From positions 7,254,001-7,318,000 of the forward strand of contig OZ024761.1 of NCBI GenBank assembly GCA_964016885.1: a stretch of 64,000 nucleotides of DNA, read 5' to 3'. The notes beneath the pieces were generated by a model. It was not told the DNA's origin, searched no databases, and was given only the letters and a program-made list of their open reading frames with translations. The position numbers and the translations under genes were made by a program. How positions within the stretch are numbered: the stretch's first letter is position 1; each line of letters begins with the position of its first letter. The DNA is from Eledone cirrhosa. Its lineage: Eukaryota. This document shows positions 12,946 through 59,267 of the stretch, one piece after another.

Positions 12946-13200
12946 ATATGAAAGACGTAAAATAAGAAAATTATAAAATTAACTTACTTACTAAAATATC
13001 ACTTCCAACTAATTAGTTTCTGGAATGGAGTAAATATATTTTCCGAAGAAGATATAGAGAAACATTCCGTCGTCAGGGAAGTCTATTCTCAGCTAAGCTT
13101 CGGAAAATATATTTACTCCATTCCAGAAACTAATTAGTTGGAAGTGATATTTTAGTAAGTAAGTTAATTTTATAATTTTCTTATTTTACGTCTCTCATAT
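12946..13200. repeat. Long inverted repeat (~100-bp arms) containing a hammerhead motif
   Basis: 12946-13048 is the reverse complement of 13098-13200. Confidence 0.9.
13002..13081 (-). ncRNA. Type-I hammerhead ribozyme motif
   Basis: cttcc-CTGACGA-c-ggaatg...cattcc-a-GAAA-CTAATTAG-TT-ggaag; stems I and II pair, palindromic stem III. Confidence 0.7.
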
Positions 13201-13374
13201 ATATATATATAAAAGGAGGAATTTGTAGTTTACTGAACATTGTATATGGTATAAAGAATTCAAGTTTGATAGCCACGGCAATGTGAAATGGACGAATAAA
13301 TAAAGAAGTGTTTTTACCTTCTGATATTTCTCGGAAGAGATTTTAACCTCGAAATATCAGGACATAAATATATC

Positions 13375-13636
13375 TTAGTCTTAGTCTTAGTTCCTCCAGT
13401 CCCTTGTGGAACATTGGGCGACCAGCTTCCTCCACTTGATCCTGTCACTGGCGGCCCTTCTAACACCTCTCCAGGTAATTCCCATCTCCCGCAGGTCCTC
13501 CCTGAATGTGCTCCGCCATGTTTTTCATGGTCTTTCCCGTTCTCTCCTGCCACCTTCTGGTACCCAATCCATGGCAATATGAGCAGGTCGATCAGCCGGC
13601 AAACGAAGGATGTGGCCCGCGAACCGCCGTCTCCTT
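13375..13636 (-). mobile_element. RTE-like LINE 3' end with (CTAAGA)n tail
   Basis: RRRRFAGHILRLPADRPAHIAMDWVPEGGRRERERP; tail aactaagactaagactaaga. Confidence 0.85.
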
Positions 13637-14050
13637 ACTAACTGTACGACTGTCTCACACTCCACTAATTCTACCACTGTCTCACACTCCACTAACTGTA
13701 CCACTGTCTCACACTCCACTAACTCTACCACTGTCTCACACTCCACTAACTGTACCACTGTCTCACACTCCACTAACTGTACCACTGTCTCACACTCCAC
13801 TAACTCTACCAGTCTCTCACTCCACTAACTGTACCACTGTCTCACACTCCACTAACTGTACCACTGTCTCACACTCCACTAACTCAACCACTGTCTCACA
13901 CTCCACTAACTGTACCACTGTCTCACACTCCACTAACTGTACCACTGTCTCACACTCCACTAACTGTACCACTGTCTCACACTCCACTAACTCTACCACT
14001 ATCTCACTCCACTAACTCTACCACTGTCTCACACTCCACTAATTCTACCA
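13637..14050. repeat. 27-bp minisatellite near the exon 6 donor
   Basis: Unit actaactgtaccactgtctcacactcc. Confidence 0.95.
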
Positions 14051-14089
14051 GACTAACCAGTGCTATAGTCATGATGAGGTTTTACTAAC

Positions 14090-14181
14090 CAATTCGAAGA
14101 TCAAGTTCCATCCTCGCATCAACAGCTTTAGAAGTATTTTCATCGGGAGGGACGAGATTTTGGCAGGCTCGGTTCACAGCC
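14090..14181 (-). CDS. TOP3A: TOP3A coding exon 6
   Basis: tgtcAG|AVNRACQNLVPPDENTSKAVDARMELDLRI(G)|GTTAGT; 92 nt. Confidence 0.95.
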
Positions 14182-14335
14182 CTGACAAAGAAAAACAAAC
14201 AAAATAGAAAAAAGAATTAGAAAAGAAACTATTTGTATGAATGGCTGATATCATCATCATCAATATCATCATTTAACCCTTTAACAAACCAACCGTATCT
14301 GGCCACTCATACTGATGTTAAGGTATTGTTCTCAT

Positions 14336-14526
14336 AATAAATAATTGTTTCTACTTTTGGCACAAGGCCAGCAATTACCCAGTGCATTACTGGTACTTTA
14401 TTTTATCGACCCCGTAAAGATGAAAGGCAAAGTTAACCTCGGCGAGATTTGAATTAAGAATGGAAAGGGCCGTAACTCTAAGCGTCAAAGCATGGTGTCC
14501 GACTCTCTACCGATACTGCCAATCCA
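14336..14526 (-). mobile_element. SINE family A
   Basis: Full-length match to 60400-60585. Confidence 0.85.
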
Positions 14527-14741
14527 TAACCCTTAGGCATTTAAACCGGCTGTATCCAGCCAGAATTCTCTCACCTCTTTCTGCTCAAACCGGCCATATC
14601 TGGCCACTCATACTGATGTTAAGGTATTGTTCTCAAAAGAAATAATATCCAAATCTCATAGCTTCGATATTATGTGAAATAAAGTGTTTACCATGATAAT
14701 ACAATGGTAAATATAGAGTAATGTAAATGCTAAAGGGTTAA
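14527..14741 (+). mobile_element. ~215-bp piggyBac-type MITE (unexpanded copy)
   Basis: TIRs taacccttaggcattta ... taaatgctaaagggttaa; CCC/GGG ends next to (T)TAA. Confidence 0.75.
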
Positions 14742-15079
14742 TGTGAGTTTTACTTGTTGTGCAGGATTGGCTGGGTTGTCACAGTGCCAATACTTAACTA
14801 CTGACATCACAGACAGGCCGGAGTGGAGGAGGCCTTCAGCTCCTGTCCCCGCACTCTACAAAGTACACAGCATGTATCTATCTCTCTCTCACTCTCTCTC
14901 TATATATATATATATATATATCATCACCATTTAACGCCCATTTTTCCACGCTAGCATGGGTTACATGAGTTGTCCGGTTGTGAGACAAGCCAGATCAGCT
15001 GACTATGTCTTGCTCATATATATATATATACAAGAAGTGTAAGTCAACAGGTTAAAATTAACTTCATTTATTCATATTC

Positions 15080-15138
15080 GCTGTTATATATATTTCAGTG
15101 ATAACCATTATACAACAGCTATGACCTCATCAGACAGC
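15080..15138 (-). ncRNA. Minimal type-I hammerhead ribozyme motif
   Basis: gctgt-CTGATGA-ggtcatagc...ggttatcact-GAAA-TATATA-TA-acagc. Confidence 0.75.
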
Positions 15139-15265
15139 TAGAACATGAACAGTAGAAAACAGAAGAACATAACGATAGAATAAAGCTTACTTCTGTTATT
15201 TCAATTTTTTTATATGCTCAGTGCTGAAGTTTGGTGTTGTTTTCTCAAAGCACTGGTCGCATATA

Positions 15266-15300
<35 letters not shown>

Positions 15301-15539
15301 GTAATAATATTAAAATTGAAGATATTTTGAAATATCCAGTTCTGCGTTTACAGATTGACTTTGTTAGTTTCAGAAGATCCCGTTAAGGGTGAAAGCAGCG
15401 ATTCTTTTCTTAAACATTAATCTGTTATTTTAATAAATATATATATATATATATATATATCATGATTATCATCACCATTTTATCATGCTAGAATAGATTG
15501 GACAGGTCCTTTCCAGCACAATAACTCTCCATAAATCTC

Positions 15540-15910
15540 AATCCATTGTCAAACAAGTTCAGCTCCAACAACCTCTGTCCAGATCTTCCTTGGTCTCCTT
15601 TCCAGAGATTTCTTGGCATTTCTTCACCCAGCTCTCATCATCCATACGCATCACATGGCTGTACCAGTGCAGTCTTTTCTCCTGCACAATACATCTGATT
15701 CTCCTTATACCAAGTTTCTCTCTCGATGATCTATGCATTGCATATCCAACAAAGCATGCTTCCTTCATTTCTCTCCATCCTTCACATATCTTCCATGATC
15801 ACTGCCCATGTCTCACCACCATGCAACATCACACTTCGACGATGAGCATCATACAGCCAAGCCAACCTTTCTTTTGTAGAGGCGAATATTTTGCTGTTAA
15901 CAGAGGTAGG
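15540..15910 (-). mobile_element. RTE-like LINE fragment
   Basis: LYDAHRRSVMLHGGETWA; KLGIRRIRCIVQEKRLHWYSHVMRMDDESWVKKC. Confidence 0.85.
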
Positions 15911-15919
15911 TTTGTGTAT

Positions 15920-16602
15920 TTGGGGACTTACTGTGGCTGGCTTGCTAGATAAGAAAACACCCAAGTAGGGGGTATTTACTGTGGCTGGCTTGCTAGATAA
16001 GACACCTGAGTGGGGTACTTACTGTGGCTGGTTTGCTAGATATGAAGACATCTGAGTGGGGGGTATTTACTGTGGCTGGCTTGCTAGATAAGAAGACATC
16101 TGAGTGGAGGGTATTTACTGTGGCTGGCTTGCTAGATAAGAAGACACCCAAGTGGGGGGTATTTACTGTGGCTGGCTTGCTAGATAAGAAGACACCCAAG
16201 TGGGGGGTATTTACTGTGGCTGGCTTGCTAGATAAGAAGACACCCAAGTGGGGGGTACTTACTGTGGCTGGCTTGCTAGATAAGAAGACACCCAAGTGGG
16301 GGGTACTTACTGTGGCTGGCTTGCTAGATAAGAAGACACCCAAGTGGGGGGTACTTACTGTGGCTGGCTTGCTAGATAAGAAGACACCCAAGTGGGGGGT
16401 ACTTACTGTGGCTGGCTTGCTAGATAAGAAGACACCCAAGTGGGGGGTACTTACTGTGGCTGGCTTGCTAGATAAGAAGACACCCAAGTGGGGGGTATTT
16501 ACTGTGGCTGGCTTGCAAGATAAGAAGACACCCAAGTGGGGGGTACTTACTGTGGCTGGCTTGCTAGATAAGAAGACACCCAAGTGGGGGGTACTTACTG
16601 TG
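15920..16602. repeat. 48-bp minisatellite whose unit contains the exon 5 donor site
   Basis: Sense unit ccaca|GTAAGTaccccccacttgggtgtcttcttatctagcaagccag, about 14 copies. Confidence 0.95.
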
Positions 16603-16650
16603 GAGTTATTTCAGAAAACTTGGCTCGGTAGATGTTTATATTAGCTTTCA
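16599..16650 (-). CDS. TOP3A: TOP3A coding exon 5
   Basis: tttacAG|VKANINIYRAKFSEITP(Q)|GTAAGT; 52 nt. Confidence 0.93.
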
Positions 16651-16688
16651 CTGTAAAAACAAAAACAACATTAACTATAACAATACAC

Positions 16689-16730
<42 letters not shown>

Positions 16731-16734
<4 letters not shown>

Positions 16735-17022: not shown

Positions 17023-17025
17023 GTA

Positions 17026-17359: not shown

Positions 17360-17485
17360 ATATATATATGTATACACAATGAAAGGGTATCTCAATAGGT
17401 ATACCAGGTCACTGAAAGTGTTAAAACACAGAGGACAGTGTACTTCACTGTAAAGGTTAATAAAGGTAGAAACACCCAAAATTAC

Positions 17486-17594: not shown

Positions 17595-17649
17595 CTTAGA
17601 GATGAATAAAAAAGAAAATAAAGAAAATATTAACACCATCACCATTTGT

Positions 17650-22144: not shown

Positions 22145-24790
22145 CACCCCTTCCTTCCTCAGTCGACGTCATCACCCCTTCCTTCCTCAGTCGACATAAT
22201 CACCCCTTCCTTCCTCAGTCGACGTCATCACCCCTTCCTTCTTCAGTCGACGTCATCACCCCTTCCTTCTTCAGTCGACGTCATCACCCCTTCCTTCTTC
22301 AGTCGACGTCATCACCCCTTCCTTCCTCAGTCGACATAATCACCCCTTCCTTCCTCAGTCGACGTCATCACCCCTTCCTTCTTCAGTGAACGTCATCACC
22401 CCTTCCTTCCACAGTCAACGTCATCTCCCCTTCCTTCCTCAGTCGATGTTATCACCCCTTCCTTCCTCAGTCGACGTCATCACACCTTCCTTCCTCAGTC
22501 GATGTTATCACCTCTTCCTTCCACAGTCAACGTCATCACCCCTTCCTTCCTCAGTCGACGTCATCACCCCCTTCCTTCCTCAGTCAACGTCATCACCCCT
22601 TCCTTCCTCAGTTGACGTCATCACCCCTTCCTTCCTCAGTCGACGTCATCACCCCTTCCTTCCTCAGTCGACATAATCACCCCTTCCTTCCTCAGTCGGC
22701 GTCATCACCCCCTCCTTCCTCAGTCGACGTCATCACCCCTTCCTTCTTCAGTCGACGTCATCACCCCTTCCTTCCTCAGTCGACATAATCACCCCTTCCT
22801 TCCTCAGTCGACGTCATCACCCCTTCCTTCCTCAGTCGACGTCATCACCCCTTCCTTCCTCAGTCGACGTCATCACCCCTTCCTTCTTCAGTGAACGTCA
22901 TCACCCCTTCCTTCCACAGTCAACGTCATCTCCCCTTCCTTCCACAGTCGACGTCATCACCCCTTCCTTCCTCAGTCGACGTCATCACCCCTTCCTTCCA
23001 CAGTCAACGTCATCTCCCCTTCCTTCCACAGTCGACGTCATCACCCCTTCCTTCCACAGTCGACGTCATCACCCCTTCCTTCCTCAGTCGACGTCATCAC
23101 CCCTTCCTTCCTCAGTCGACGTCATCACCCCTTCCTTCCTCAGTCGACGTCATCACCCCTTCCTTCCACAGTCAACGTCATCACCCCTTCCTTCCTCAGT
23201 CGACGTCATCACCCCTTCCTTCCTCAGTCGATGTTATCACCTCTTCCTTCCACAGTCAACGTCATCACCCCTGCCTTCCTCAGTCGACGTCATCACCCCT
23301 TCCTTCCTCAGTCGACGTCATCACCCCTTTCTTCCTCAGTCGACGTCATCACCCCTTCCTTCCTCAGTCGACGTCATCACCCCTTCCTTCCACAGTCAAC
23401 GTCATCACCCCTTCCTTCCTCAGTCGACGTCATCACCCCTTCCTTCCTCAGTCGATGTTATCACCCCTTCCTTCCTCAGTCGACGTCATCACCCCTTCCT
23501 TCCTCAGTCGACGTCATCACCCCTTCCTTCGTCAGTCGACGTCATCACCCCTTCCTTCCTCAGTCGACGTCATCACCCCTTCCTTCCTCAGTCGACGTCA
23601 TCACCCCTTCCTTCCTCAGTCAACGTCATCACCCCTTCCTTCCTCAGTCGACGTCATCACCCCTTCCTTCCTCAGTCGACGTCATCACCCCTTCCTTCTT
23701 CAGTGAACGTCATCACCCCTTCCTTCCTCAGTCGACGTCATCACCCCTTCCTTCCTCAGTCGACGTCATCACCCCTTCCTTCCTCAGTCGACGTCATCAC
23801 CCCTTCCTTCCTCAGTCGACGTCATCACCCCTTCCTTCCTCAGTCGACGTCATCACCCCTTCCTTCCTCAGTCAACGTCATCACCCCTTCCTTCCTCAGT
23901 CGACGTCATCACCCCTTCCTTCCTCAGTCGACGTCATCACCCCTTCCTTCCTCAGTCGACGTCATCACCCCTTCCTTCCTCAGTCGACGTCATCACCCCT
24001 TCCTTCCTCAGTCGACGTCATCACCCCTTCCTTCTTCAGTGAACGTCATCACCCCTTCCTTCCTCAGTCGACGTCATCACCCCTTCCTTCCTCAGTCGAC
24101 GTCATCACCCCTTCCTTCCTCAGTCGACGTCATCACCCCTTCCTTCCTCAGTCGACGTCATCACCCCTTCCTTCCTCAGTCGACGTCATCACCCCTTCCT
24201 TCCTCAGTCAACGTCATCACCCCTTCCTTCCTCAGTCGACGTCATCACCCCTTCCTTCCTCAGTCGACGTCATCACCCCTTCCTTCCTCAGTCGACGTCA
24301 TCACCCCTTCCTTCCTCAGTCGACGTCATCACCCCTTCCTTCCTCAGTCAACGTCATCACCCCTTCCTTCCTCAGTCGACGTCATCACCCCTTCCTTCCT
24401 CAGTCGATGTTATCACCCCTTCCTTCCTCAGTCGACGTCATCACCCCTTCCTTCCTCAGTCGACGTCATCACCCCTTCCTTCCTCAGTCGACGTCATCAC
24501 CCCTTCCTTCCTCAGTCGACGTCATCACCCCTTCCTTCCTCAGTCGACGTCATCACCCCTTCCTTCCTCAGTCGACGTCATCACCCCTTCCTTCCTCAGT
24601 CGATGTTATCACCCCTTCCTTCCTCAGTCGACGTCATCACCCCTTCCTTCCTCAGTCGACGTCATCACCCCTTCCTTCCTCAGTCGACGTCATCACCCCT
24701 TCCTTCTTCAGTGAACGTCATCACCCCTTCCTTCCACAGTCAACGTCATCTCCCCTTCCTTCCTCAGTCGATGTTATCACCCCTTCCTCA
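22145..24790. repeat. 28-bp CpG-containing minisatellite
   Basis: Unit gtcgacgtcatcaccccttccttcctca, about 94 copies. Confidence 0.97.
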
Positions 24791-24837
24791 ATCATCTCTA
24801 GTGTGCCGGACAAATACACAAGAGTATTATATATTAG

Positions 24838-25040
24838 TTGGTGGATTGTCAGCATCGGTAGAGTCGGACGCCATGCTTTGCAGCACAGAGTTACGGCCCT
24901 TTATGATCTGAGTCCAAATCCAGCTGAGGTTAACTTTGCCTTTCATCCTTACAGGGTCGATAAAATAAAGTACCAGTCACGCACTGGGGGCGATTTAATC
25001 AACTTTCCCTTCCCCAAATTGCTGGCCTTGTGCCTATATA
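24838..25040 (+). mobile_element. SINE family A
   Basis: Head, B-box-like gagtccaaatccc, conserved body. Confidence 0.85.
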
Positions 25041-25295
25041 ACAAACCATTATCTATTAGTCGATAATAAATGAGCAAAGTATACAATATTTTTTTTTTAA
25101 TTTAAAAATTTCTGACAATTTTTGTGGGGTGCATGGGCCCCTCTAGTAATATGCCTCTGATGGGGCCCACATAGGTAGCACCTCTTTTAGCAGGGAAAAT
25201 GACCTTAAACACTATAGTATAACAATTTTAAGCCTTTCATAATGGTTTCTGATTCAGGCACAAGACCAACAATTTTGAGGAAAAGAGAAAGTCAA

Positions 25296-28200
25296 TCAAC
25301 CCTTTACCATTTACATTACTCTATATATATACTATTGTTAAAGGCTTTACCTCACATAATATCTCACATAGCATTTATATTACTCTATATATACTATTGT
25401 ATTGTCACAGTAAAGGCTTTACCTCACATAATATCTCACATAACATTTACATTACTCTATATATACTATTGTATTGTCACAGTAAAGGCTTTACCTCACA
25501 TAATATCTTACATAACATTTACATTACTCTATATATACTATTGTATTGTCACAGTAAAGGCTTTACCTCACATAATATCTCACATAACATTTACATTACT
25601 CTATATATACTATTGTATTGTCACAGTAAAGGCTTTACCTCACATAATATCTTACATAACATTTACATTACTCTATATATACTATTGTATTGTCACAGTA
25701 AAGGCTTTACCTCACATAATATCTCACATAACATTTACATTACTCTATATATACTATTGTATTGTCACAGTAAAGGCTTTACCTCACATAATATCTTACA
25801 TAACATTTACATTACTCTATATATACTATTGTATTGTCACAGTAAAGGCTTTACCTCACATAATATCTCACATAACATTTACATTACTCTATATATACTA
25901 TTGTATTGTCACAGTAAAGGCTTTACCTCACATAATATCTCACATAGCATTTATATTACTCTATATATACTATTGTATTGTCACAGTAAAGGCTTTACCT
26001 CACATAATATCTTACATAACATTTACATTACTCTATATATACTATTGTATTGTCACAGTAAAGGCTTTACCTCACATAATATCTCACATAACATTTACAT
26101 TACTCTATATATACTATTGTATTGTCACAGTAAAGGCTTTACCTCACATAATATCTCACATAACATTTACATTACTCTATATATACTATTGTATTGTCAC
26201 AGTAAAGGCTTTACCTCACATAATATCTTACATAGCATTTACATTACTCTATATATACTATTGTATTGTCACAGTAAAGGCTTTACCTCACATAATATCT
26301 CACATAACATTTACATTACTCTATATATACTATTGTATTTTCACTGTAAAGGCTTTACCTCACATAATATCTCTCATAACATTTACATTACTCTATATAT
26401 ACTATTGTATTTTCACTGTAAAGGCTTTACCTCACATAATATCTCACATAACATTTACATTGCTCTATATATACTATTGTATTTTCACAGTAAAGGCTTT
26501 ACCTCATATCTCACATAACATTTACATTACTCTATATATACTATTGTATTTTCACAGTAAAGGCTTTACCTCATAATTTCTCACATAACATTTACATTAC
26601 TCTATATATACTATTGTATTTTCACAGTAAAGACTTTACCTCACATAACATTTACATTGCTCTATATATACTATTGTATTTTCACAGTAAAGGCTTTACC
26701 TCATATCTCACATAACATTTACATTACTCTATATATACTATTGTATTGTCACAGTAAAGGCTTTACCTCACATAATATCTCACATAACATTTACATTACT
26801 CTATATATACTATTGTATTTTCACTGTAAAGGCTTTACCTCACATAATATCTCTCATAACATTTACATTACTCTATATATACTATTGTATTTTCACTGTA
26901 AAGGCTTTACCTCACATAATATCTCACATAACATTTACATTGCTCTATATATACTATTGTATTTTCACAGTAAAGGCTTTACCTCATATCTCACATAACA
27001 TTTACATTACTCTATATATACTATTGTATTTTCACAGTAAAGGCTTTACCTCATAATTTCTCACATAACATTTACATTACTCTATATATACTATTGTATT
27101 TTCACTGTAAAGGCTTTACCTCACATAATATCTCACATAACATTTACATTGCTCTATATATACTATTGTATTTTCACAGTAAAGGCTTTACCTCATAATT
27201 TCCCACATAACATTTACATGACTCTATATATACTATTGTATTTTCACAGTAAAGACTTTACCTCACATAACATTTACATTGCTCTATATATACTATTGTA
27301 TTTTCACAGTAAAGGCTTTACCTCATATCTCACATAACATTTACATTACTCTATATATACTATTGTATTTTCACAGTAAAGGCTTTACCTCATAATTTCT
27401 CACATAACATTTACATGACTCTATATATACTATTGTATTTTCACAGTAAAGACTTTACCCTACATAACATTTACATTGCTCTATATATACTATTGTATTT
27501 TCACAGTGAAGGCTTTACCTCATATCTCACATAACATTTACATTACTCTATATATACTATTGTATTTTCACAGTAAAGGCTTTACCTCATAATTTCTCAC
27601 ATAACATTTACATTACTCTATATATACTATTGTATTTTCACAGTAAAGGCTTTACCTCATAATTTCTCACATAACATTTACATTACTCTATATATACTAT
27701 TGTATTTTCACAGTAAAGGCTTTATCTCACATAATATCTCACATAACATTTACATTACTCTATATATACTATTGTATTTTCACAGTAAAGGCTTTATCTC
27801 ACATAATATCTCACATAACATTTACATTACTCTATATATACTATTGTATTTTCACAGTAAAGGCTTTACCTCACATAATATCTCACATAACATTTACATT
27901 ACTCTATATATACTATTGTATTTTCACAGTAAAGGCTTTACCTCACATAACATTTACATTACTCTATATATACTATTGTATTTTCACAGTAAAGGCTTTA
28001 CCTCACATAATATCTCACATAACATTTACATTACTCTATATATACTATTGTATTTTCACAGTAAAGGCTTTACTTCACATAACATCTCACATAACATTTA
28101 CATTACTCTATATATACTATTGTATTTTCACAGTAAAGGCTTTACCTCACATAACATCTCACATAACATTTACATTACTCTATATATACTATTGTATTTT

Positions 28201-28433
28201 CACAGTAAAGGCTTTACTTCACATAATATCTCACATAACATTTACATTACTCTATATATACTATTGTATTTTCATTTAATTATCTCACATAATATCGAAT
28301 CTACGAGATTTTCATATTTATTTTGAGAACAATACCTTAACATCAGTATGAGTGGCCAGTTATGATTGGTTTGAAGAGAAAGAGATGAGAGAATTCTGGC
28401 CGGATGCGGCCGATTTAAATACTAAAGGGTTAA
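25296..28433 (-). mobile_element. piggyBac-type MITE expanded to 3.1 kb by an internal 72-bp array
   Basis: Both termini present (tcaaccctttaccattta / taaatactaaagggttaa); 28272-28433 is the reverse complement of the MITE at 14527; array 25305-28272. Confidence 0.88.
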
Positions 28434-30375: not shown

Positions 30376-31244
30376 TCCACAAGACTGTTACGCAACAAAG
30401 ATCTTTACTCATTTAATTTCTTCTTCTTTGCCCACTTATTCCTGGGAGGGTCCTGGGGACAGAGTCCTCGGAAATGTCTTCCAGAGAGTCCTATCAGAAG
30501 CAACCATCTCTGGACACATTTAATTATAAAAAGGGCCACAGAATTGAGATCCTTTATTGCTCAGTAATATAGCTCTCTGAGTTCTGGGCCCAAAGTGGCT
30601 GCCTAGTTGGACAGAAGATAGAGCCAACCCTGCCCCACACACAAGCTCACAAGGGGAAACTGACCTTAACCAACCCTAACCTTATAAATGCAATGAATCC
30701 AGAGATTTTCATTTTTTCAAACAAGCTCTATTGTCAATCATGAACTCTGTTTAAAATCCACTTTCCCGGCTGGCATGGGTCAAACTATTTTACCCACATT
30801 CCCTATTGGCATGGGTTGGACTATGATACCACTGTATCATTGGAGGGAGCCTGTATGTAGCCACTTGACCTGCTAGAGTTAGCAGTTAAATCTCCTTCGC
30901 ACAGCATTCCTTGCATGTATGGATAGAGCCATAATGCCTGGAGTCGTAGGAGTGCTGTAGTGACATATAGCATGATTTGGGCATTTTTAAAACCCAGCAA
31001 AGTTCATCTCCCCTCCATGTCTGAACACAGCTGATTTCTCTCAGAGGAGGACACACAGAGAGAGATTGATAGAAAGGAAGAATCCACCCCAGTACTACAC
31101 TGGTAACTATTTTTATCTACCTTGAAAGGATGAAAGGCAAAGTTGAGCTCAGCAGGATTTGAACTCAGAGAGCTGGAACGAATACCACAAACTATTTTAT
31201 CCGGCGTTCTAATGCAGTGTTTCTCAATCGGTATTCCCTGGAAC

Positions 31245-40200: not shown

Positions 40201-41790
40201 CACTCCACCTAATGTCCACCACCACAGATTCACTCCACCTAATGTCCACCACCACAGATTCACTCCACCTAATGTCCACCACACCACCACAGATTCACTC
40301 CACCTAATGTCCACCACACCACCACAGATTCACTCCACCTAATGTCCACCACACCACCACAGATTCACTCCACCTAATGTCCACCACCACAGATTCACTC
40401 CACCTAATGTCCACCACACCACCACAGATTCACTCCACCTAATGTCCACCACACCACCACTCATTCACTCCACCTAATGTCCACCACCACAGATTCACTC
40501 CACCTAATGTCCACCACCACAGATTCACTCCACCTAATGTCCACCACCACAGATTCACTCCACCTAATGTCCACCACCACAGATTCACTCCACCTAATGT
40601 CCACCACCACAGATTCACTCCACCTAATGTCCACCACCACAGATTCACTCCACCTAATGTCCACCACACTACCACAGATTCACTCCACCTAATGTCCACC
40701 ACACCACCACAGATTCACTCCACCTAATGTCCACCACCACAGATTCACTCCACCTAATGTCCACCACACCACCACAGATTCACTCCACCTAATGTCCACC
40801 ACCACAGATTCACTCCACCTAATGTCCACCACCACAGATTCACTCCACCTAATGTCCACCACACCACCACAGATTCACTCCACCTAATGTCCACCACCAT
40901 TGATTCACTCCACCTAATGTCCACCACACCACCACAGATTCACTCCACCTAATGTCCACCACACCACCACAGATTCACTCCACCTAATGTCCACCACACC
41001 ACCACAGATTCACTCCACCTAATGTCCACCACAGATTCACTCCACCTAATGTCCACCACACCACCACTGATTCACTCCACCTAATGTCCACCACCACAGA
41101 TTCACTCCACCTAATGTCCACCACCACTGATTCACTCCACCTAATGTCCACCACCACAGATTCACTCCACCTAATGTCCACCACACCACCACAGATTCAC
41201 TCCACCTAATGTCCACCACACCACCACAGATTCACTCCACCTAATGTCCACCACACCACCACAGATTCACTCCACCTAATGTCCACCACACCACCACAGA
41301 TTCACTCCACCTAATGTCCACCACACCACCACAGATTCACTCGACCTAATGTCCACCACACCACCACAGATTCACTCCACCTAATGTCCACCACACCACC
41401 ACAGATTCACTCCACCTAATGTCCACCACACCACCACTGATTCACTCCACCTAATGTCCACCACCATTGATTCACTCCACCTAATGTCCACCACACCACC
41501 ACAGATTCACTCCACCTAATGTCCACCACACCACCACAGATTCACTCCACCTAATGTCCACCACACCACCACTGATTCACTCCACCTAATGTCCACCACC
41601 ACTGATTCACTCCACCTAATGTCCACCACACTACCACAGATTCACTCCACCTAATGTCCACCACACCACCACTGATTCACTCCACCTAATGTCCACCACC
41701 ACAGATTCACTCCACCTAATGTCCACCACCACTGATTCACTCCACCTAATGTCCACCACCACAGATTCACTCCACCTAATGTCCACCACC
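31245..41790. repeat. 10.5-kb minisatellite of interspersed 30- and 35-bp units (intron 1)
   Basis: gattcactccacctaatgtccacc(acacc)accac(a/t). Confidence 0.98.
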
Positions 41791-43177: not shown

Positions 43178-43303
43178 CCGGCGAAAGTTTCCTCTCGATA
43201 AAACTTCAGCCAATGATTTCGCTGCATCGTTCTTTTCAGCGACATTCAGTATCCTCGTCATTGTCGAAACAGCCTTACTTAACCTGGCAGACAAATTTAC
43301 CAT
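43178..43303 (-). CDS. TOP3A: DNA topoisomerase 3-alpha, coding exon 1
   Basis: Translates MVNLSARLSKAVSTMTRILNVAEKNDAAKSLAEVLSRGNFRR (TOPRIM start, VAEKNDAAK typical of Top3a); donor CGG|GTAAGT, phase 0. Confidence 0.93.
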
Positions 43304-43384
43304 TTTACTTCAGTCATCACGTATTGTTGTTCACCTAATCTTTCGTCTTTAATAAAAAAATATATTTAGTGTTACAACATGTTT

Positions 43385-48795: not shown

Positions 48796-51127
48796 AAACC
48801 TTTTCGATACCAACTCGACTAAAGTTGGCCTCTAGTTCTATGAAACAAAAACCACCTATTTTAAAAGCTTCCGATTTAAATTAAAACCTAACATAATTTT
48901 ATACATGACAACCATATGTTAAGTTTCGATCTTAGTAAAAAAACAAAACAATTTTAGTGAATGCCTCAAAATTCTCCATCGATTAATTAATACAGTGCAA
49001 TTAATTAGAAAAACGCACGTGAAATGGTTAATACAGCTACTATATTCCTCGACCCCATCCCTCTTTCATTCACATATTTATATGTTCTCTCTCTCTCTCT
49101 TTCCATTGTTAACTATTTATGTTTGTATTTTTGTATCAATATATGTTTGTCTAGCAATCTCATCTATATATCTATCTGTCTGTTTACATATATATATATG
49201 AAAAATTCGGGAGCTTCTGCCGTTTTAATAGCTAGATCTAGCTGTTGAAACGGCAGAAGCTCAGCCGTTGGGGTCCTGAATTTTTCATATTATCCACTCT
49301 ACTGTCCCAAGTATCGAGTACTCTGGTGCATAATGGTCTAACTGTTTTTTACTGCATCCATTCTGATATATATATATGTATATATATCTTATTTAACTAT
49401 AATACACTCTGTATAGCTCTACACCTCGACACTGAAGTGAACCTAAACATCGAGTGCTCACCCGGGTGAAGAACCTACAGTAACTCCAAGTTACACTCTC
49501 TGGATATATATATAGTGCGAGGTGCGACGTAGTTCCACTACGTACGTACGTACGTGTGTGTGGGGGGGGGGTGCAGGGTGTCCCTCCAAAATGTATGCAC
49601 ACTTTGATTACCTGTACAGGCAATATTTATTAGAATAGACAGCCTATATATATATAATATATATATTTTTTGGCAATATTATAACAATATGACCCTCCCC
49701 AAATATAAAAATATAAAAGTATAAAAGATATATGTATAGGGAGCTTTTTTTATTCCATCTAGAGTACATATTTTTTCTTTGAAATATGTGCTCTGTATAC
49801 ATACAATATATTGTGTTTTTTCGTGGCCATATGGCCCTTTGTCTCTCTATACATATATCTTTTACACTTGAATTATCATGGCTCAAGACATTGAGTCTAT
49901 TGAGAAGCACAAAAATCAAACATATTTGTTATGTTTTGATTCTTCACATTTATATACATATATGTGTGTGAAGGTGAGGAAAGGTGATTCTATGATGCGA
50001 ATACTTTTCTTAGACGAAATTAGCAACCAAAACAAAATGATTTGAAATACCTCCACTATGGCTGACATGATGATTCAAATCAGCCCCTCCCCACACAAAG
50101 ACACATATCTGTAGAGATGGAGGATTGAATAATATACTATAATTGGCGACATTGTAGTGTATTACTGGTATTTCTATTCGTGCAACCACCATAACTGACC
50201 TGGAGCTAAATATAACAGGTCTTTTTTTTTTTATCCAGCAACCAAAAAGGACGCCATGCTAGAAATAGTAGCCAAATCTCACTCGACACCACAAGATAAG
50301 ATACATTGGTGAATTTAGTTCCATGATATACCAAAAAGATGGAATAGCCATGGTTGGGATACCTTTCATCATAGCGTCAGCTCAATTTTTTGGTAAGCAG
50401 AAATAAAGTGATGAAATGCTATTTTTAAATCGCTTCTTTAACTGACAGTGCACAACTCTGAATAAAAGTGACAAGAAGGTTTATTGTATAGCAATTACAT
50501 GTTTGTGGAACATTACACTAAATAGATAGATGGATGGATAGATAGAGAGAGAGACAAACATTAGACAGATAGATGGATAGATAGAGAGTCAAACATTAGA
50601 CAGACAGATAGATAGATGTATAAAGATACACATAGATATAGACAGACAGATAGATAGGTGTATATAGATAGATAGACTGACAGATATACAGATGTATATA
50701 GATAGACTGATAGATATAAAGATAGACATAAAAAGATGGATAGCAGATGTATATAAATAGACAGATATATAGAGAGAGATAGACAGATATATAGAGAGAT
50801 AAGCAGATATATATAGACATATACAGATATATATGAGTTATAAACTCGAAATAGTCTTTTACAATTAAATAGCTCAAATTTATTGATTTATTATTTTAAA
50901 TCGAGACTTGCAAACCATATTATGTTAAATTAGTATTCTTTCAACCTAGCTAACTTGGTCATTTGCAATTTGAACACTTCTATAATTGTATAGATGTTCA
51001 TCCCGCATATATTCATGTGTATATATATATATATGTGTGTAGGAGGTGAGTTTTATTGTAGTACAATAAAGCAATGCAGATATCGGATAAGAAGCACTCT
51101 ACAGTTTGTAGGACTGGAGTATACATA

Positions 51128-51198
51128 ATATATAAGAACAAAAGATGGTTAAAAGAGTTCCATGTAACTCTTTTAACCATCTTTTGTTCTTATATATA
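51128..51198. repeat. Short near-perfect palindrome
   Basis: tatataagaacaaaagatggttaaaagagtt-ccatgt-aactcttttaaccatcttttgttcttatata. Confidence 0.85.
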
Positions 51199-51916
51199 TT
51201 ATATATATATATATGAGAGAGATAAGCAGATGATGTGCTCACAAAGACACCCCAGATATATATATATATCATCATCATCATCATCATCACCGTTTTACGT
51301 CCGTTCTTCCACGCATGCATATATATATATATAAAATATATGATGACATTACATGTATATGAAAATTAATCGGTTTATTCATTTAATTTTGTCAGCGCTG
51401 ACGGGGCAGCTCTTCTTTGGCCAAAGACGTTCCAGCTATGACCATTCCGTCTTTTAATTCCTTCTCTCAAATAAATAGTTTAAGGAACATACATTATTTA
51501 ATCTATCCTTTCATTTTCTTTTTTAAAAGCTGGAGGTTGCTGTGGGTTTTTTTTAGGGAAATTTGGCTGTTATTTCTAGCAAGATGAGCGACCACTTAGA
51601 GGTTTCCTTTGTTGGCTTTTTGATGAGAATATTGCATCACATTTGTGGTTGTAAACATAACAAAGACAGGATGGTCGCCACTGTAATATTGTTTATCATA
51701 ATAAGTGTATGCTCGATCACGGGCTAACTTGATACTAAATATTAGCGATGATGATGATAGCTTATTATAGACTCATTGTGGTGGGGAACAAGCAAGCCAT
51801 GGCAGTGATTGCGGAGGTCACATCACTGTATATCTCGTCTCTCTTTCAATCTGATCGGTACTGAGTCTTTTAAGAAGAACACCTAATAGAAACTGTGTGT
51901 ATATATATATATATAC

Positions 51917-51959
<43 letters not shown>

Positions 51960-52749
51960 CACTGCGTGGGACTTATTAGAATGCACTCAACGTAGAGAAA
52001 TGTATTTTTATTAAAGATTATAGATATATATATGTATATGCACTATAATTACTGTGTTTATATATATATATATATATATATATAAGGGTTTATATACATA
52101 TCTAGTGCCTCAATGGATGTATATATGTGTGTAAATATAGATAGTATTTACAGTGTAGCCAGATAAATGTTATCTGTAATATACATCCATATAATATATC
52201 GCCTGGATTTCAGCAACATGCCCTGATATTAACGCCCCACCTCACTATCCTTCTAATATATAATGCCCGTCTATTTCTCTATTAATGTATCCCTGTCTAT
52301 TTATCTATGTCTGTGCTTTTTGCTTTTTTTCGCGACCACCAAACTAAACTAAAATTTAAAAAATCACACGTATCACATTTAAAAACTTCTTTTACATTTC
52401 TCATTCGCTATTTTAATCTTTTTTACCATGGCTAGGTATTTGCTAAGGTTTTAGCTTGTTTTTATTCCTTTCATTATATTTGAGCATTATTTCGCGTCTA
52501 GCATGTTACGCACGGATTCCATTTAGTTTCCAAATGGAATGTCTATGTTTTTATATAAAAGTAATACACCGTTATTATATATATTTCATCCTTACGGGGT
52601 CGATAAAATAAAGTACCAGTAATGCACTGGTTAATTGCTGGCCTTGTGCCTAAAGTAGAAACAATTATATATATATATATATATATGTTGAAGTTTCCGT
52701 GGGAAAAGTAAAAGGAATGAAGAGTGCTCTATATAAGTAACAGAGCTAA

Positions 52750-52897
52750 ATATTTAATGTATAATAAACAACACAGTATAATTACCTCATTACCCGAGGT
52801 TTCCCAAACAGGACGAACACAAGAGGCGTCCGCATTCGTTCGTCAGATGGAAAACCTCGGGAAATGAGGTAATTATACTGTATTGTTTATTATACAT

Positions 52898-52904
<7 letters not shown>
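52750..52904. repeat. Inverted repeat enclosing a minus-strand hammerhead-like motif
   Basis: Arms 52750-52805 / 52849-52904; minus strand cat-CTGACGA-...ggacg...cgtcc...-GAAA-CCTCGGG-TA-atg. Confidence 0.7.
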
Positions 52905-52931
<27 letters not shown>

Positions 52932-53045
52932 CAAAGGGATATTTATTTTGCTGGTAATTCAACAGATTCGAAGCACTCGACAAGTTTCCTGGAGTATAAT
53001 ATCAATGATATTAATAAATGGAAACTATATTTATAAAACCATATT

Positions 53046-53110
53046 TATTTTATTATATATATTTCAAGGGTACCAAAAAAAATTTTGGTACGATCTCATC
53101 AGATAAAATA
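53046..53110 (-). ncRNA. Minimal type-I hammerhead ribozyme motif
   Basis: tattttat-CTGATGA-gatcgtaccaaaa...ttttggtaccctt-GAAA-TATATA-TA-ataaaata. Confidence 0.75.
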
Positions 53111-53224
53111 CAAAATTTGTTTTATAAGTAGTGACATACTCGATAAACCAGACCTTATCGATTCAGATTCCGTTTGGATATCCAAAGTTGGCAGGTGGGT
53201 TCTATAGAAGTGGTTGATAGCTTC

Positions 53225-53817
53225 CGGTACCTAAGTGATCAGATTAGCATGAGAGGGGGCGTCCGAGGCCATAGTATCTAGAATAAGGACGGGTTGGAAG
53301 AAGTTTAGGGAGCTGCTTCCTCTGTTGACAAAGAAAGGTTTCTCCCTGCATAGGAAAGGATGGTTATATGATGCCTGTGTGAGATGCGCGATGTTGCACG
53401 TTAGCGAGACATGGGCAGCAAATGCAGAAGATATGCGACGTCTGGAGAGAAATGAAACAAGCCTGCTCCGTTGGATGTGCAATGTCAAGGTGCGTGAACG
53501 AGCAAACATAGACGAGTTGAGCAAGAAACTGGGTGTGAGAGGGATAAGTTGTGGTGTGCAGGAGAGAAAGCTGAGATGGTATGGACATGTGATGCGCATG
53601 GAGGATAACCAAGGGTGAAGACGTGCCAGGAAGTCCCAGTGGAGGGAAGACGCAGTAGATGTAGACCAGGAAACACATGGGCGGAGGTGGTGAGAGCAGA
53701 CCTCAGATCGCTGTAATTCACCGATGAGATGACGAAGGACCGTGACAAGTGGAGAGATGCTGTGCTGAATAGGACCCGTGCAAGCAGGGTAAAGCGGACA
53801 TAAAATGATGATGATGA

Positions 53818-53820
<3 letters not shown>
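53225..53820 (+). mobile_element. RTE-like LINE 3' fragment with (GAT)n tail
   Basis: KGWLYDACVRCAMLHVSETWA...LRWYGHVMRMED. Confidence 0.88.
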
Positions 53821-53864
<44 letters not shown>

Positions 53865-53912
53865 TATATTAAAATATAAGTATTAATAAAATAGATGTTC
53901 TTTTGATCAATT

Positions 53913-53969
53913 ACATTTTATTATACATATTTCGGATGTACAACAGTACGTCCTCATCAGACAAAATAT
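53913..53969 (-). ncRNA. Minimal type-I hammerhead ribozyme motif
   Basis: atattttgt-CTGATGA-ggacgtac-tgtt-gtacatcc-GAAA-TATGTA-TA-ataaaatgt. Confidence 0.8.
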
Positions 53970-54265
53970 AATGATACATGACATACCCTGAGATGTTAAA
54001 TGGTTAAGATTTAATCAAGGTAGAACATTATTTTACGTTGAGTGCTTCCATTCTACTGTAAAACTCATTCTTTGACATAATCATTAAATATTGTTTAACA
54101 ACTTAATATTATATAAATATATATATCTGATATATTATATATATATGATATATTATATATATATATATATTATATATAAGTGAAAGGTATAGAAATATAT
54201 ATATATTATATATATATGATATATATATATATTATATATGATATATATATATATATATATATTAT

Positions 54266-54397
54266 ATAGGAACGAGTAAGACCTCGATGGCTGAGCTCAA
54301 GCCGTTTCGACGGCTAATTCTGGACTAAAACATTTAGTCCAGAATTAGCCGTCGAAACGGCTTGAGCTCAGCCGTCGGGGTCCTACTCGTTCCTATT
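54266..54397. repeat. Near-perfect ~130-bp palindrome (pLTR-like)
   Basis: ataggaacgagta...tggactaaa-ac-atttagtcca...tactcgttcctat; related sequence at 11420-11560 and 49205-49280. Confidence 0.88.
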
Positions 54398-54494
54398 ACC
54401 CACTCTACTACCCTAATTATTGAGTACTTTGGTGCGTTATGGTCCATCTGGTTCCGTACCACATTTCCTTCGTTATATATTATATATATATACA

Positions 54495-55770
54495 TATTAT
54501 AGAATCAAAAGGCCTTATAATTAACCTGTCTAAGACTAAAGTTCTAGTATGTAGGAAGGAAAATAGGGCACTGGTCCCAGCTGGGAAATGGCCATGCTCA
54601 GTGTGTAGGAAAGGAGTAGGCAGAAACTCCATTTTATGTCCCAAATGCAAAGTATGGGTGCATAAAAGATGTAGTGGGATCACAGGTAAGCTAACTAAGA
54701 ATATAGATTTTATATGTGGCCGGTGCTCAGGTGCACTAAGTAGCAGCAGGTGCCCAGAGAATACTAGCTCATTCCATTGCACAGATTGTTCTATAGAAAT
54801 AGTGGACACCTTCCGTTACCTGGGTGACAAAATCAGCAGTGGGGGAGGGTGCTCTGAAAGTACTGTAGCTAGAGTCCGAACGGAATGGAAAAAGTTCAGA
54901 GAGCTTATACCACTATTGGCCGCTAAAGGTTTCTATCTAAAAATGAAAGGCAGGCTGTATGATGCCTGCATACGAACAGCAATGTTACCTGGTAGTGAGA
55001 CATGGGCCTTGTGTGCAGAGGATATACGCAGACTGGAGAGGAACGAAGCTTGCATGCTCCGCTGGATGTGTAATAGTAATATACGTGAACGGCAAAGCAT
55101 AAATGAACTAAGTGAGAAATTAGGAATAAGAGGGATCAGATGCTGTTTACTCGAGAGAAGACTACGTTGGTATGGTCACGCGATGCGCTTGAAAGACGAT
55201 AGCTGTATAAAAAAAAGTGCAGGGCGATAAAGATAGACGGTAGCCATGTAGTAGACAGACCCAGAAAAACCTGGGACGACTTGATAAATTCCGACCTCAC
55301 ACACTTACACCTCTCCAAGACAATCTCACTGGACCGAGATCTTTGGCGCTACACAGTAATACAGAAGACCCGCCTTGCCTAAGTACATAGCGAAACCTAC
55401 AGTCAGTAGGCACCCCTTAACAAAAATACACCCCTGTCCCACTACCCCCCACTTCATCCACACCACCCCTTTCGATGTAAAGTTATGTTGGTACCACAAC
55501 ATCCAGTCCTAAATAAATGAGGTCGTGTAGGTGTCACAACAAAAAAACACAGACAGTCCACGCTGTAATGTGGTCGTGTAGGTAACACGGTAAAAACCTC
55601 CCAGTCCACACTGTAAACGTGGTTGGTGTTAGGAAGGGCATCCAGCCGTAGAAAACCCGCCAGACAGTCCTATACGAGCAAGACAACCAATCTTGCCTCA
55701 AGTGGGAAAATTCCCGTCCAAACCCATGCTAGCGTGGAAGATGGACGTTAAACGATGATGATGATGATGA
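54495..55770 (+). mobile_element. 5'-truncated RTE-like LINE (RT C-terminus with PHD-like Cys/His insert, 3' UTR, (GAT)n tail)
   Basis: GLIINLSKTKVL...CSVC...CPKC...HKRC...CGRC...FRYLG...LRWYGH; frameshift near 55215. Confidence 0.92.
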
Positions 55771-56298
55771 TTATATATATATATCTATATATAATATATT
55801 ATATATATCTATATATAATATATTATATATATATATATAATATAATATAGTCACTTATATATTATGAAATACTGTTGGTTTCACGCTCACAATAATTTCT
55901 ATACTTTCATTTATAATATAAATGTTATATATATAATATATATATATATATATTATATATATAACGAAATTCTGTTTTAATGAAAATCAAGGGACATAAA
56001 AAAAAATTTTTATCAGGAGATGAAAGACTTGGAGCTTGTGACCGGGAATTGATAAGAATTTCGTTATACTGAAAAATCCGTTATAACGGAATTTTATATA
56101 TAAATATATACAAGCTGCCCAATCCCAGTCAACACTGGTCGTCTCGGTGCCCCGATAAAAAGTACCCATTCCATTCTGTAAACGTGGTTGGCGTTAGGAA
56201 GGGCATCCAGTGGTAGAAACCAACCCCAAATCAGTTCTTTATGAGCAAGACACGGTCATCTGATCTGGCTTGTCTCACAACAGGACAACTCGTCTAAC

Positions 56299-56343
<45 letters not shown>

Positions 56344-56877
56344 GGAATGAACCCCGACCGCCTCCAAGCGGTTTCGCTCTATACCTACATCTCCCCATTA
56401 AGTACTTCCATTATTAGTGGTCTCCGCGGTCTCAGCTCTCCATATATATATATATAATGTGTTAACTTTTTTATTATTCTCCTTAAGTAAGGCTTTGACA
56501 AACACAGACCGATAAAACAAGTACTAATCGACGAAATTGCTTGAAGGCAGTGCCCCAGCATGGCCGCAGTCAAATGACAACCCAGTAAAAGAATATATTA
56601 TACACTCTTTAGTGATTACGGGCATAGTGGTTATGACATACAGAAAAAATCTACTAAGTATGTGTGTGTATATATATCTATATATACACACACACACACA
56701 CATATATATACATATATACTGCTCTTCCAACATTGAATTAAATGGACTTAGCAGCCATTTTGTCTTTAAGACGGAAAAATCTTGTAAAAAGTCATCGTTC
56801 GCCTTTAAATAGTTATCATGTTTGGTGGGGAAAGACGTATTTTACAATATATAACCTCCCCATCACCACTTCGTGTT

Positions 56878-56925
<48 letters not shown>

Positions 56926-57229
56926 ACGTTTTAATTTTAACTCGAAATCGAAACTAGATAATATTATTTGACAAACGTTATTTATAATTAATATAAGACA
57001 GAAAAGAAAATTCGTAATGGTGTCAGATTCGATCGATATGAAGACTGTGATCGGTTTAACGACCGATTCTATATCGATTTCCTCCTAACAAGTTTAGACA
57101 TATTTACACAAACGAACGAAAACCCTGTGACAGATTCTATTTATAAATAAATAAGTCCATAAATTCAAATTATATGGATTTGATGCATTAAAAAAAACTG
57201 GGGGTTATTTCTTTAATTTTTCGTAATAT

Positions 57230-57480
57230 ATTGTTGTTGGTGGTGGTGGTAGTGGTGATGATGATGGTGGTAATGATGACAATGATGGTGGTGGTGATGA
57301 CAATGATGGTGTGGTGGTGGTGATGATGGTGGTAATGACAATGATGATGTTGGTGGTGGTGGTGATGGTGATGGTGGTGGCGGTAATAATGGTGGTGGAG
57401 ATGATGGTGGTAATGATGGTGATGGTGGTGGTGGTGGTGATGATGGTGGTGGTGGTGGTGATGATGGTGGTGGTGGTGCA
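57230..57480. repeat. (GGT/GAT)n simple repeat
   Basis: Direct inspection. Confidence 0.9.
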
Positions 57481-57634
57481 GTGCTGTGTTCTGAAATTCT
57501 TAGCTCGGTTATGAAGAAGCGAATGATGATAGCGATGTATTATTGATATAAATCGAACTAAGATCGAAACCAGCTTCTAAGCATAGATGCACACACACAC
57601 ATATATATGTATATATATATACATATATATGATG

Positions 57635-57830
57635 ATGTTTCCTTGAGCAAGACACTTTATTTCACATTGCTCCAGTTTACTCAGCTGTAGAAATGAGATA
57701 ATAGGGAAGGCGTGTGGCTGAGTGGTTAGAGAATTGGATTTTCAATCGTAAGGTTGTGAGTTCGATTCCTGGACCAGGCGATGCGTTATGTCCTTGAGCA
57801 AGACACTTTATTTCACGTTGCTCCTTCTAC
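57635..57830 (+). mobile_element. SINE-B head and core fragments
   Basis: tggctgagtgg A-box, gagttcgattc B-box, ccttgagcaagacacttta. Confidence 0.75.
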
Positions 57831-58056
57831 CTGGAGTTGCGACCGATAGATAGTATTAGCAATTGGAAAGACCAACGGAAACATTGTTCCCTCGGTCCGA
57901 TTTGACGAAAGTCAATCGTCTTTTCTTTTCATATATTATATATAATATATATATATATATATTATATATGCAAAGTTTTATTTAAATTGGTGGGTTACAA
58001 CGAGTAAATATTTATAACTGATATAAAAGCACTCAACAAGTATTTGGAGTATATTT

Positions 58057-58357
58057 ACGATATTAAATAAATGGAAACTATATTTATAAAACCATATTTA
58101 TTTCATTATATATATTTCAGGGATATCATATTAAAAATATGGTATGCCTTCATCAGACAAAATACAATGTAAACAGTCTTATAAATAGATAGATTTGACA
58201 AATCAACTTTTTAAATGGAAGTTGAAGTTGTAAGGTATGTCAAATCTATCTATTTATAAGACTGTTTATATTGTATTTTTAATATGATATCCCTGAAATA
58301 TATATAATGAAATAAATATGGTTTTATAAATATAGTTTCCATTTATTTAATATCGTA
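58057..58357. repeat. ~300-bp inverted repeat (Penelope pLTR-like)
   Basis: Left arm 58057-58200 is the reverse complement of 58238-58357 except for a deletion removing the CTGATGA segment; homologous to 53005-53130. Confidence 0.88.
58099..58164 (-). ncRNA. Minimal type-I hammerhead ribozyme motif
   Basis: tattttgt-CTGATGA-aggcataccatatt-ttt-aatatgatatccct-GAAA-TATATA-TA-atgaaata. Confidence 0.75.
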
Positions 58358-58695
58358 TATATATTATATATATATATATATAAAATATATATATAATATA
58401 TATAAAATATATATATAATATATATATAATATATATAAAATATATATATAATTTATATATAATATATATAAAATATATATATAATATATATATAATATAT
58501 ATATATTATATATTATTTATATATAATATATATAAAATATATATATAATATATATATAATATATATATATTATATATTATATATATAATATATAATATAT
58601 ATATATATTATATATTATATATATAATATATATATTATATATTATATATATAATATATATTATATATATAATATATATATATATATATATTATGA

Positions 58696-59267
58696 GTTGA
58701 AATAAAATGAAAACGAAATTTCATTTCTCACTCTTAGTACGGCACTTACTTAAATGTAAGTATGTGTGTATACGTACATACATATATGTATACAGACGTA
58801 CAGTAGCATGCATATATATATATATATATATATACATATATATATACACACATATACATACAGGTACACATACATATATGCACGTATCAGTTTAGCGGAC
58901 GCTTATTATAACGCCGCTTTGTTCATTTGTAAACAAACTGAACAGCCTGAATTTTATGCCGTATGGTGTTAAGGCAACCACGTCACCTTTTTGTTCAACA
59001 CTGACACAGGAACGATGTACTAGTTTCAAGCTTGTTAGCTATCATCAGCACCATATACCCTTCTGCCAGATAATTGAACGTCCGAAAGTATATACTTTCC
59101 TAATGAAAATTAACGGCTGAGCAGCCTAATTTGCATATCGAGTGAGTCAAGTCGGTCAGGCATACCGAAGACGATAAGTTGAAATAAAATGAAAACGAAA
59201 TTTCATTTCTCACTCTTAGTACGGCACTTACTTAAATGTAAGTATGTGTGTATACGTACATACATAT
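58696..59267. repeat. ~90-bp direct repeats bracketing a hammerhead motif
   Basis: gttgaaataaaatgaaaacg...tacgtacatacatat at 58696 and 59178. Confidence 0.85.
59012..59054 (-). ncRNA. Very small type-I hammerhead motif
   Basis: atggtg-CTGATGA-t-agct-aaca-agct-t-GAAA-CTAG-TA-catcgt. Confidence 0.7.

Follow-up and report, generated by a model that had tools for sequence, protein, structure and literature searches.

The closest described counterparts of the sequences reported here are the minimal hammerhead ribozymes of Penelope-like elements (PLEs). Cervera and de la Pena (2014; PMC4209133) described genome-wide solo and opposite-strand minimal hammerheads derived from truncated PLEs. Craig et al. 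(2021; PMC8557442) described the Hydra clade of C-terminal endonuclease-bearing (EN+) PLEs, and their supplement includes Hydra-1_Obim of Octopus bimaculoides; both dispersed PLE minimal hammerheads and an octopus Hydra-clade element are already in print. For retrozymes, a PLE origin and mobilisation have been proposed (Cervera and de la Pena, 2020, PMC7229834; Li, Clavereau and Pollet, 2026). In vitro, the Poseidon PLE of Anolis carolinensis nicks AT-rich DNA and starts reverse transcription at two internal sites, with uncut RNA as the main template and a hammerhead that needs protein help (Frangieh et al., 2024; PMC11167929). Our statements on these papers refer to the sections drawn on here. 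We analysed a 64,000-nt stretch of the Eledone cirrhosa genome (assembly GCA_964016885.1, contig OZ024761.1, positions 7,254,001 to 7,318,000; "the window"), which contains seven minimal type-I hammerhead motifs. Our reading, to which we assign a probability of about 0.85, is that all seven are hammerheads in PLE ends, five of them in stubs of Hydra-clade-like PLEs and two in pieces of ~500-nt non-coding tandem families that are likely moved by PLE enzymes, by a mechanism that we infer. The families are distinct from the published Hydra-1_Obim, judging from a comparison of its hammerhead by eye.

Both strands of the window were scanned with a descriptor (CTGAnGA, stem II, GAAA, a short stem III, UH and stem I) that was written after the sites had been seen and is therefore somewhat tuned to them. 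It matched exactly seven times, on the minus strand only, at the cores listed in Table 1, by whose start positions we name the copies and their families. In windows shuffled by dinucleotide, 100 times per setting, the mean was 0.00-0.04 matches and the maximum 1. All seven motifs carry the CUGANGA and GAAA boxes with an NUH triplet in type-I order. Stem III is a perfect palindrome in five and near-palindromic in two, with self-duplex energies of -2.2 to -9.0 kcal/mol, and stem I comprises at least 5 bp in six of the seven and 3 bp in 52846. Since stem I reaches ~10 bp in sister copies of 52846, this copy is 5'-truncated. The distance from each core to a (TA)5+ tract is 55-203 nt; of background positions, 43% have such a tract within 250 nt.

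Covariation was assessed in 192 distinct instances from fetched genomic loci, among which kinship was uncontrolled. Since MAFFT misaligned the seven motifs, a script was used to count paired positions. Stem I paired in 93% of cases, compared with 67.5% when partners were shuffled (maximum, 70%), and stem II in 80%, compared with 54% (maximum, 57%), indicating compensatory change across the genomic copies. A first-pass annotation, made from the sequence of the window before any search, had described seven minus-strand minimal type-I hammerheads at the same coordinates, with a very short, mostly palindromic stem III, stems that differ between copies yet keep pairing, and positions mostly in or near (TA)n; all of these descriptions held. 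By sequence, the seven are confirmed as real minimal type-I hammerheads, whose cut sites are predicted (Table 1).

Five of the motifs (15133, 52846, 53102, 53960 and 58156) lie in short pieces of PLE ends, mostly stubs of the pseudo-long terminal repeat (pLTR), and three of the seven window copies bear partial inverted arms on the plus strand. Where copies of these families, or of families closely related to them, are longer, coding DNA sits 1.3-1.7 kb upstream of the hammerhead. Four of the five long inverted pairs fetched for the 58156 family contain reverse transcriptase (RT) and GIY-YIG endonuclease sequence that ends ~1.45 kb upstream of the hammerhead, and the same is true of four of five for the 53960 family, at ~1.6 kb; the pair without an open reading frame (ORF) in each family is a 1.2-kb pair, shorter than the 3' untranslated region (UTR). 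The window copies 53960 and 58156 are 97-99% identical to the pLTRs of ORF-bearing copies, which for the 58156 stub are loci L256 and L259. Upstream extension from a relative of 53102 reached RT and GIY-YIG frames ~1.3 kb before the hammerhead; locus L266 is a pLTR-ORF-pLTR copy with a broken frame and 3,676 bp between its pLTR hammerheads. In the 52846 family, two long copies are 86% identical over 1.1 kb that includes degenerate Hydra-type GIY-YIG remnants. No continuous ORF link was found for the 15133 family within the 1.5-kb flanks of 60 fetched loci (some overlapping); of two loci sharing upstream DNA, one yielded a Hydra-type GIY-YIG remnant ~1.5 kb upstream when extended. Because longer copies carry RT and GIY-YIG coding sequence, the five are not separate non-autonomous families.

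The protein motifs of these longer copies, compared by eye with the published proteins, assign the five stubs to Hydra-clade-like PLE families. DKT rather than DKG is present in L259 and L369, RWR (a variant of the RWK motif) in L266 and L369, and a CxCX5C linker with endonuclease CxxC and CxH in L259, L264 and L366; no CCHH was seen by eye. As in the Hydra clade, the copies are inserted in (TA)n. Together, the families, ORF links and (TA)n insertion bear out the earlier suggestion that PLE- or retrozyme-type minimal type-I hammerheads are present here in several TA-targeting families.

Several shorter sequence features recur in these families. A GAGTGC/GAGCAC-like word is found in the tails of Hydra-like families (window ~52965, ~58025 and ~52725) and occurs twice in full-length L266 (L266:370-500); among 218 instances, 140 lacked it, and 66 of the 78 that bear it have it 60-89 nt after the cut site. 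When the tails were folded as single sequences, no single hairpin recurred consistently in the different families. A GGTAY splice-donor-like word, possibly the donor of a PLE 5' intron, is present no more than 60 nt upstream of 221 of 311 cores with a TATATA stem III (e.g., window ~53987 and L256), a count for which no background was computed. At stem II position 4 of this TATATA class, a C-C or C-A mismatch occurs in 113 of the 192 distinct instances, and the adjacent positions pair in >90%.

Table 1. Features of the window discussed in the text (positions are those of the 64,000-nt window)
Feature	Positions	Strand	Core start	Predicted cut	Remarks
Hammerhead 1	13001..13082	-	13076	after 13007, GUU	sense in TOP3A intron
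Hammerhead 2	15080..15138	-	15133	after 15085, AUA	sense in TOP3A intron
Hammerhead 3	52788..52849	-	52846	after 52791, GUA	stem I cut down to 3 bp
Hammerhead 4	53046..53110	-	53102	after 53054, AUA	
Hammerhead 5	53912..53970	-	53960	after 53922, AUA	
Hammerhead 6	58099..58164	-	58156	after 58107, AUA	
Hammerhead 7	59012..59054	-	59048	after 59018, GUA	
Element with hammerhead 1	12832..13201	-			piece of 522-nt non-coding tandem family; 104-nt inverted arm at 13098-13201; ~120-nt tail
pLTR stub with hammerhead 2	15031..15272	-			starts at usual 5' end of the family, ~139 nt before core
5'-truncated PLE end with hammerhead 3	52686..52907	-			60-nt inverted arm at 52848-52907 and tail
pLTR stub with hammerhead 4 and tail	52930..53180	-			87% identity to both L266 pLTRs over 173 nt
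pLTR stub with hammerhead 5	53862..54105	-			fixed family 5' end ~54023; tail inverted at about 54030-54105
Fold-back pLTR stub with hammerhead 6	57970..58355	-			forward arm and tail; inverted arm at about 58200-58355 without CTGATGA box
Element with hammerhead 7	58692..59267	-			1.2 units, period 482 nt, 94-nt terminal direct repeat; ~500-nt head-to-tail non-coding family
5'-truncated PLE of other type	63083..64000	+			RT C-terminal part, CX2-5CxxC linker, GIY-YIG
TOP3A coding exon downstream of hammerhead 1	12624..12785	-			
TOP3A coding exon between hammerheads 1 and 2	14090..14180	-			
Likely first TOP3A coding exon	43180..43304	-			hammerheads 3-7 lie 9.5-15.7 kb upstream

The remaining two motifs, 13076 and 59048, belong to non-coding tandem families. 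Elsewhere in the genome, the 59048 family forms an array of 10 hammerhead-bearing units spaced 486-524 nt apart, with 33% GC and no ORF over 74 aa. The 13076 family consists of repeated 522-nt partial tandems; no array of complete units was seen among its loci, and two matches 5.36 kb apart, considered as a full element, proved to be a segmental duplication without an ORF. Both families have two alternative 3' ends, each followed by (TA)n, as well as inverted arms. Because these ends and arms resemble PLE insertions, PLE-type enzymes likely mobilise both. On sequence, the two families fit the type of the retrozymes that lack long terminal repeats (non-LTR retrozymes), from which expression of monomers or circles is predicted.

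The ends of the stubs suggest how they might have formed. In position-ordered samples, in which both copies of one inverted pair are not independent, 17 of 30 5' ends in the 58156 family fall 71-88 nt upstream of the core and 9 of 30 in the 53960 family fall 63-64 nt upstream; 15133 copies mostly begin about 139 nt upstream. A further sample was anchored by a pattern 3' of the cut site, with a reference that limits lengths to about 120 nt and was itself excluded (29 of 30 copies kept). None of these 29 copies starts within 8 nt of the cut site, and 22 hold the whole core. Because the stubs run through the cut site, uncut RNA is likely the template. We propose that the GIY-YIG endonuclease of the element would nick (TA)n DNA and that RT would start internally, 50-180 nt downstream of the ribozyme, from which both 3' ends (known as the PLE "tail") and the inverted arms would arise. 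If RT started in the 5' pLTR on a probably uncut template, it would copy as far as the 5' end of the RNA, 60-140 nt upstream of the ribozyme, and the resulting stub would measure 200-300 nt and always have the same 5' end.

The short palindromic stem III would make monomers weakly active, with cleavage only as dimers or with protein help. Even dimers should not be assumed to cleave well: the first-pass annotation stated that such hammerheads cleave efficiently as dimers, which overstates the published data, as activity was low even for dimers and trimers in the experiments reported in PMC4209133 and only one of nine dimer constructs cleaved in Li 2026 (bioRxiv 10.64898/2026.07.22.740005). Given this weak predicted monomer activity, solitary copies scattered through the genome should be mostly inert, the two in TOP3A introns among them. 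In fold-back copies, the predicted hammerhead fold is abolished in context; for 13076, the probability of the stem I closing pair drops from 0.98 alone to 0.00, and the prediction is that this intronic copy is silenced by the inverted arm that it carries. A broader proposal, which we offer tentatively and at somewhat less than even odds, is that most of the tens of thousands of stubs, rather than being random 5' truncations, are complete complementary DNAs that cover the initial 200-300 nt of Hydra-clade PLE transcripts left uncut, with one end at the internal RT start and the other where transcription of the pLTR begins, and that fold-back arms silence the ribozyme and let sense intronic stubs persist, as in TOP3A. 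If so, each family's promoter start and RT start would be preserved in the genome, and ribozyme cleavage would not set the end of the template in vivo.

A number of observations weigh against placing seven ribozymes in PLE ends. The covariance-model check proposed in the first-pass annotation came out negative: Rfam gave no hammerhead match over the whole window at E ≤ 5 and none at 52700-54050, and at 59048 it gave only Hammerhead_HH9, at 15.8 bits (E, 0.26), below the gathering score of 52. In isolation, the hammerhead is the predicted minimum fold only for 13076; for the other six, a competing fold is favoured by 4-9 kcal/mol. Only 50% of the 192 instances form the first pair of stem II, indicating that the canonical G10.1-C11.1 pair is often absent; this pair is G-C in 31 of the 192 and in 1 of the 7 copies of the window (one-base register shifts were not scored). 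The ORF link of 53102 runs through relatives of 85-90% identity (87% for the L266 pLTRs) and is indirect, and the links of 52846 and 15133 consist of degenerate fragments. L266, at 3,676 bp, exceeds the <3 kb published for Hydra elements. Neither 13076 nor 59048 matched the pLTRs of 15 loci tested, two of which are of the type of the plus-strand PLE at 63083. A preferred truncation point would look like a fixed 5' end, from which we infer the transcription start. Finally, the occurrence of all seven motifs on one strand has p=0.016 when taken alone.

The lack of Rfam support and the marginal folding energies, together with the poor cleavage of published PLE minimal hammerheads (PMC4209133), could mean that the motifs arose by chance in AT-rich DNA or are decayed and without ribozyme function in any copy. 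We consider this the least probable explanation: at most 0.04 matches were expected in the window where seven were found, the core is kept while the stems change compensatorily between families, and the pattern for the TATATA stem III class has 26,790 matches in the 3.0-Gb genome compared with 36 for a reversed control. This class averages 0.57 per 64 kb; the window has 3 (Poisson p about 0.02). The shared strand could instead reflect selection, with sense hammerheads cutting or regulating the TOP3A pre-mRNA or an upstream transcript. TOP3A is encoded on the minus strand, starts near 43304 and extends at least 35 kb to the left of the window, so that 13076 and 15133 are sense-intronic and all seven motifs lie on its strand; no coding exon was seen in the sequence around hammerheads 3-7, which a host transcript may nonetheless cover. 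Genome-wide, however, the TATATA class is balanced between strands (13,519 plus and 13,271 minus), as are the family patterns (258/264, 697/699, 16/20 and 11/11). Among the first 100 matches on contig C1, 14 divergent pairs lie within 5 kb, and the neighbours of the other 72 within 64 kb are on the same strand in 9 cases and on the opposite strand in 14. Plus-strand hammerheads occur just past the window, at 65678 and 72714. A 7:0 window is expected somewhere among the about 47,000 of this size. The families of these copies are young and multi-copy, with identities of up to 97-99%, and the predicted fold of 13076 is the one that its own arm abolishes. Selection on the cluster is therefore very unlikely. 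Because the families are strand-balanced and the window was picked post hoc, the shared strand is likely due to chance, in line with the caution in the first-pass annotation that seven cases cannot establish a strand bias.

Mobilisation in trans by another PLE deserves somewhat more weight, and we still judge it improbable. The first-pass annotation suggested that the hammerheads belong to non-autonomous elements mobilised by elements like the one that it placed at 63164+, which we locate at 63083 (Table 1). The hammerhead of this PLE is on the plus strand about 1.7 kb past the window end, with an inverted end, and the best named relative of its protein is from Octopus vulgaris (64%). Its type is abundant and, because many relatives retain intact frames of ~1,217 aa, was likely active recently. 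That two families are non-coding tandem units with PLE-type ends, and that short non-coding copies are the majority in every family, would also suit a scheme in which all seven are independent non-autonomous elements. Against it, each of the five stub families continues into Hydra-type coding DNA of its own, and L031 and L104, the two loci of the 63083 type tested, matched none of the seven copies. The suggestion thus fails for the five, and the non-autonomous reading fits 13076 and 59048 only. We favour the reading of five Hydra-clade-like PLE stubs and two retrozyme-like pieces.

Other features of the 63083 PLE and of the surrounding DNA were noted. The 63083 type was considered as the coding source of the stubs and rejected: profile and tblastn searches gave no continuous coding DNA of this type, whereas Hydra-type ORFs were found. 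The element itself (window 63045-64000; L031:1050-4000) shows a partial tandem across an N gap and a terminal inversion, within a 3-kb (TA)n tract. At locus L032 (contig C22, 7326627/7326714), 8.7 kb to the right of the window, a divergent pair of identical hammerheads of a further family lies 87 nt apart. TOP3A introns are inflated by minisatellite arrays with units of 28, 29, 35, 46, 48 and 72 nt, located at window 1-3786, 5367-8145, 22145-28274, 31243-41789 and others; one array exceeds 10 kb. Fragments of the 3' ends of non-LTR long interspersed nuclear elements, which we take to be RTE/CR1-like, and tRNA-derived short interspersed nuclear elements are found at 9661-9870, 15497-15950, 53231-53800 and 54424-55230, and a tRNA-like match at 59902-59959. 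Short near-perfect inverted repeats beside TA tracts (51125-51216 and 54292-54360) recur in other loci and are possibly fold-back stubs of other elements.

As a discovery, these findings are ordinary; their worth lies in the material. Because the families are young and very abundant, and have a fixed 5' end and two 3' ends, they would permit a genome-scale test of the role of the PLE hammerhead in retrotransposition, and the sense intronic copies could serve to test whether the ribozyme is inert in host pre-mRNA. Literature searches on hammerheads in octopus PLEs and in cephalopods returned Craig et al. (2021) and one twister paper. The main text of a 2026 repeat annotation of O. vulgaris (PMC13282606) contains none of the words hammerhead, ribozyme or Hydra.

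The motifs resemble the metazoan PLE pLTR hammerheads of PMC4209133 in their long stem II, short palindromic stem III and many families per genome, and in being mostly solo motifs of truncated PLEs, with opposite-strand pairs 100-700 bp apart. They differ in having a stem I of 5-10 bp and a less conserved G10.1-C11.1 pair, and no mollusc is among the cases described in the sections of that paper drawn on here. With the Hydra clade (PMC8557442), they share the RWx, DKT, CxCX5C and CxxC/CxH motifs without CCHH by eye, insertion in (TA)n, a canonical hammerhead near the 3' end, inverted 5' copies and tails. The copies here are larger (~3.7 kb rather than <3 kb), with a 3' UTR of 1.3-1.7 kb, RWR in place of RWK and tens of thousands of stubs, and the published Hydra-1_Obim hammerhead is, by eye, unlike all seven. 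The 13076 and 59048 families resemble non-LTR retrozymes (PMC7229834; Li 2026) in that they are non-coding head-to-tail repeats of low GC, bear one type-I hammerhead in each unit and occur as dispersed monomers too. Their monomers of 486-524 nt exceed the 150-450 bp of PMC7229834 and fall within the 51-972 bp of Li 2026, and their insertions differ in having PLE-type inverted arms and two 3' ends. Poseidon (PMC11167929) belongs to another clade, and the sections of that paper drawn on here do not describe stubs whose 5' end is fixed at a point upstream of the ribozyme; its two internal RT starts, which would explain the tail, its AT-rich target and its uncut template all fit the data from E. 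cirrhosa.

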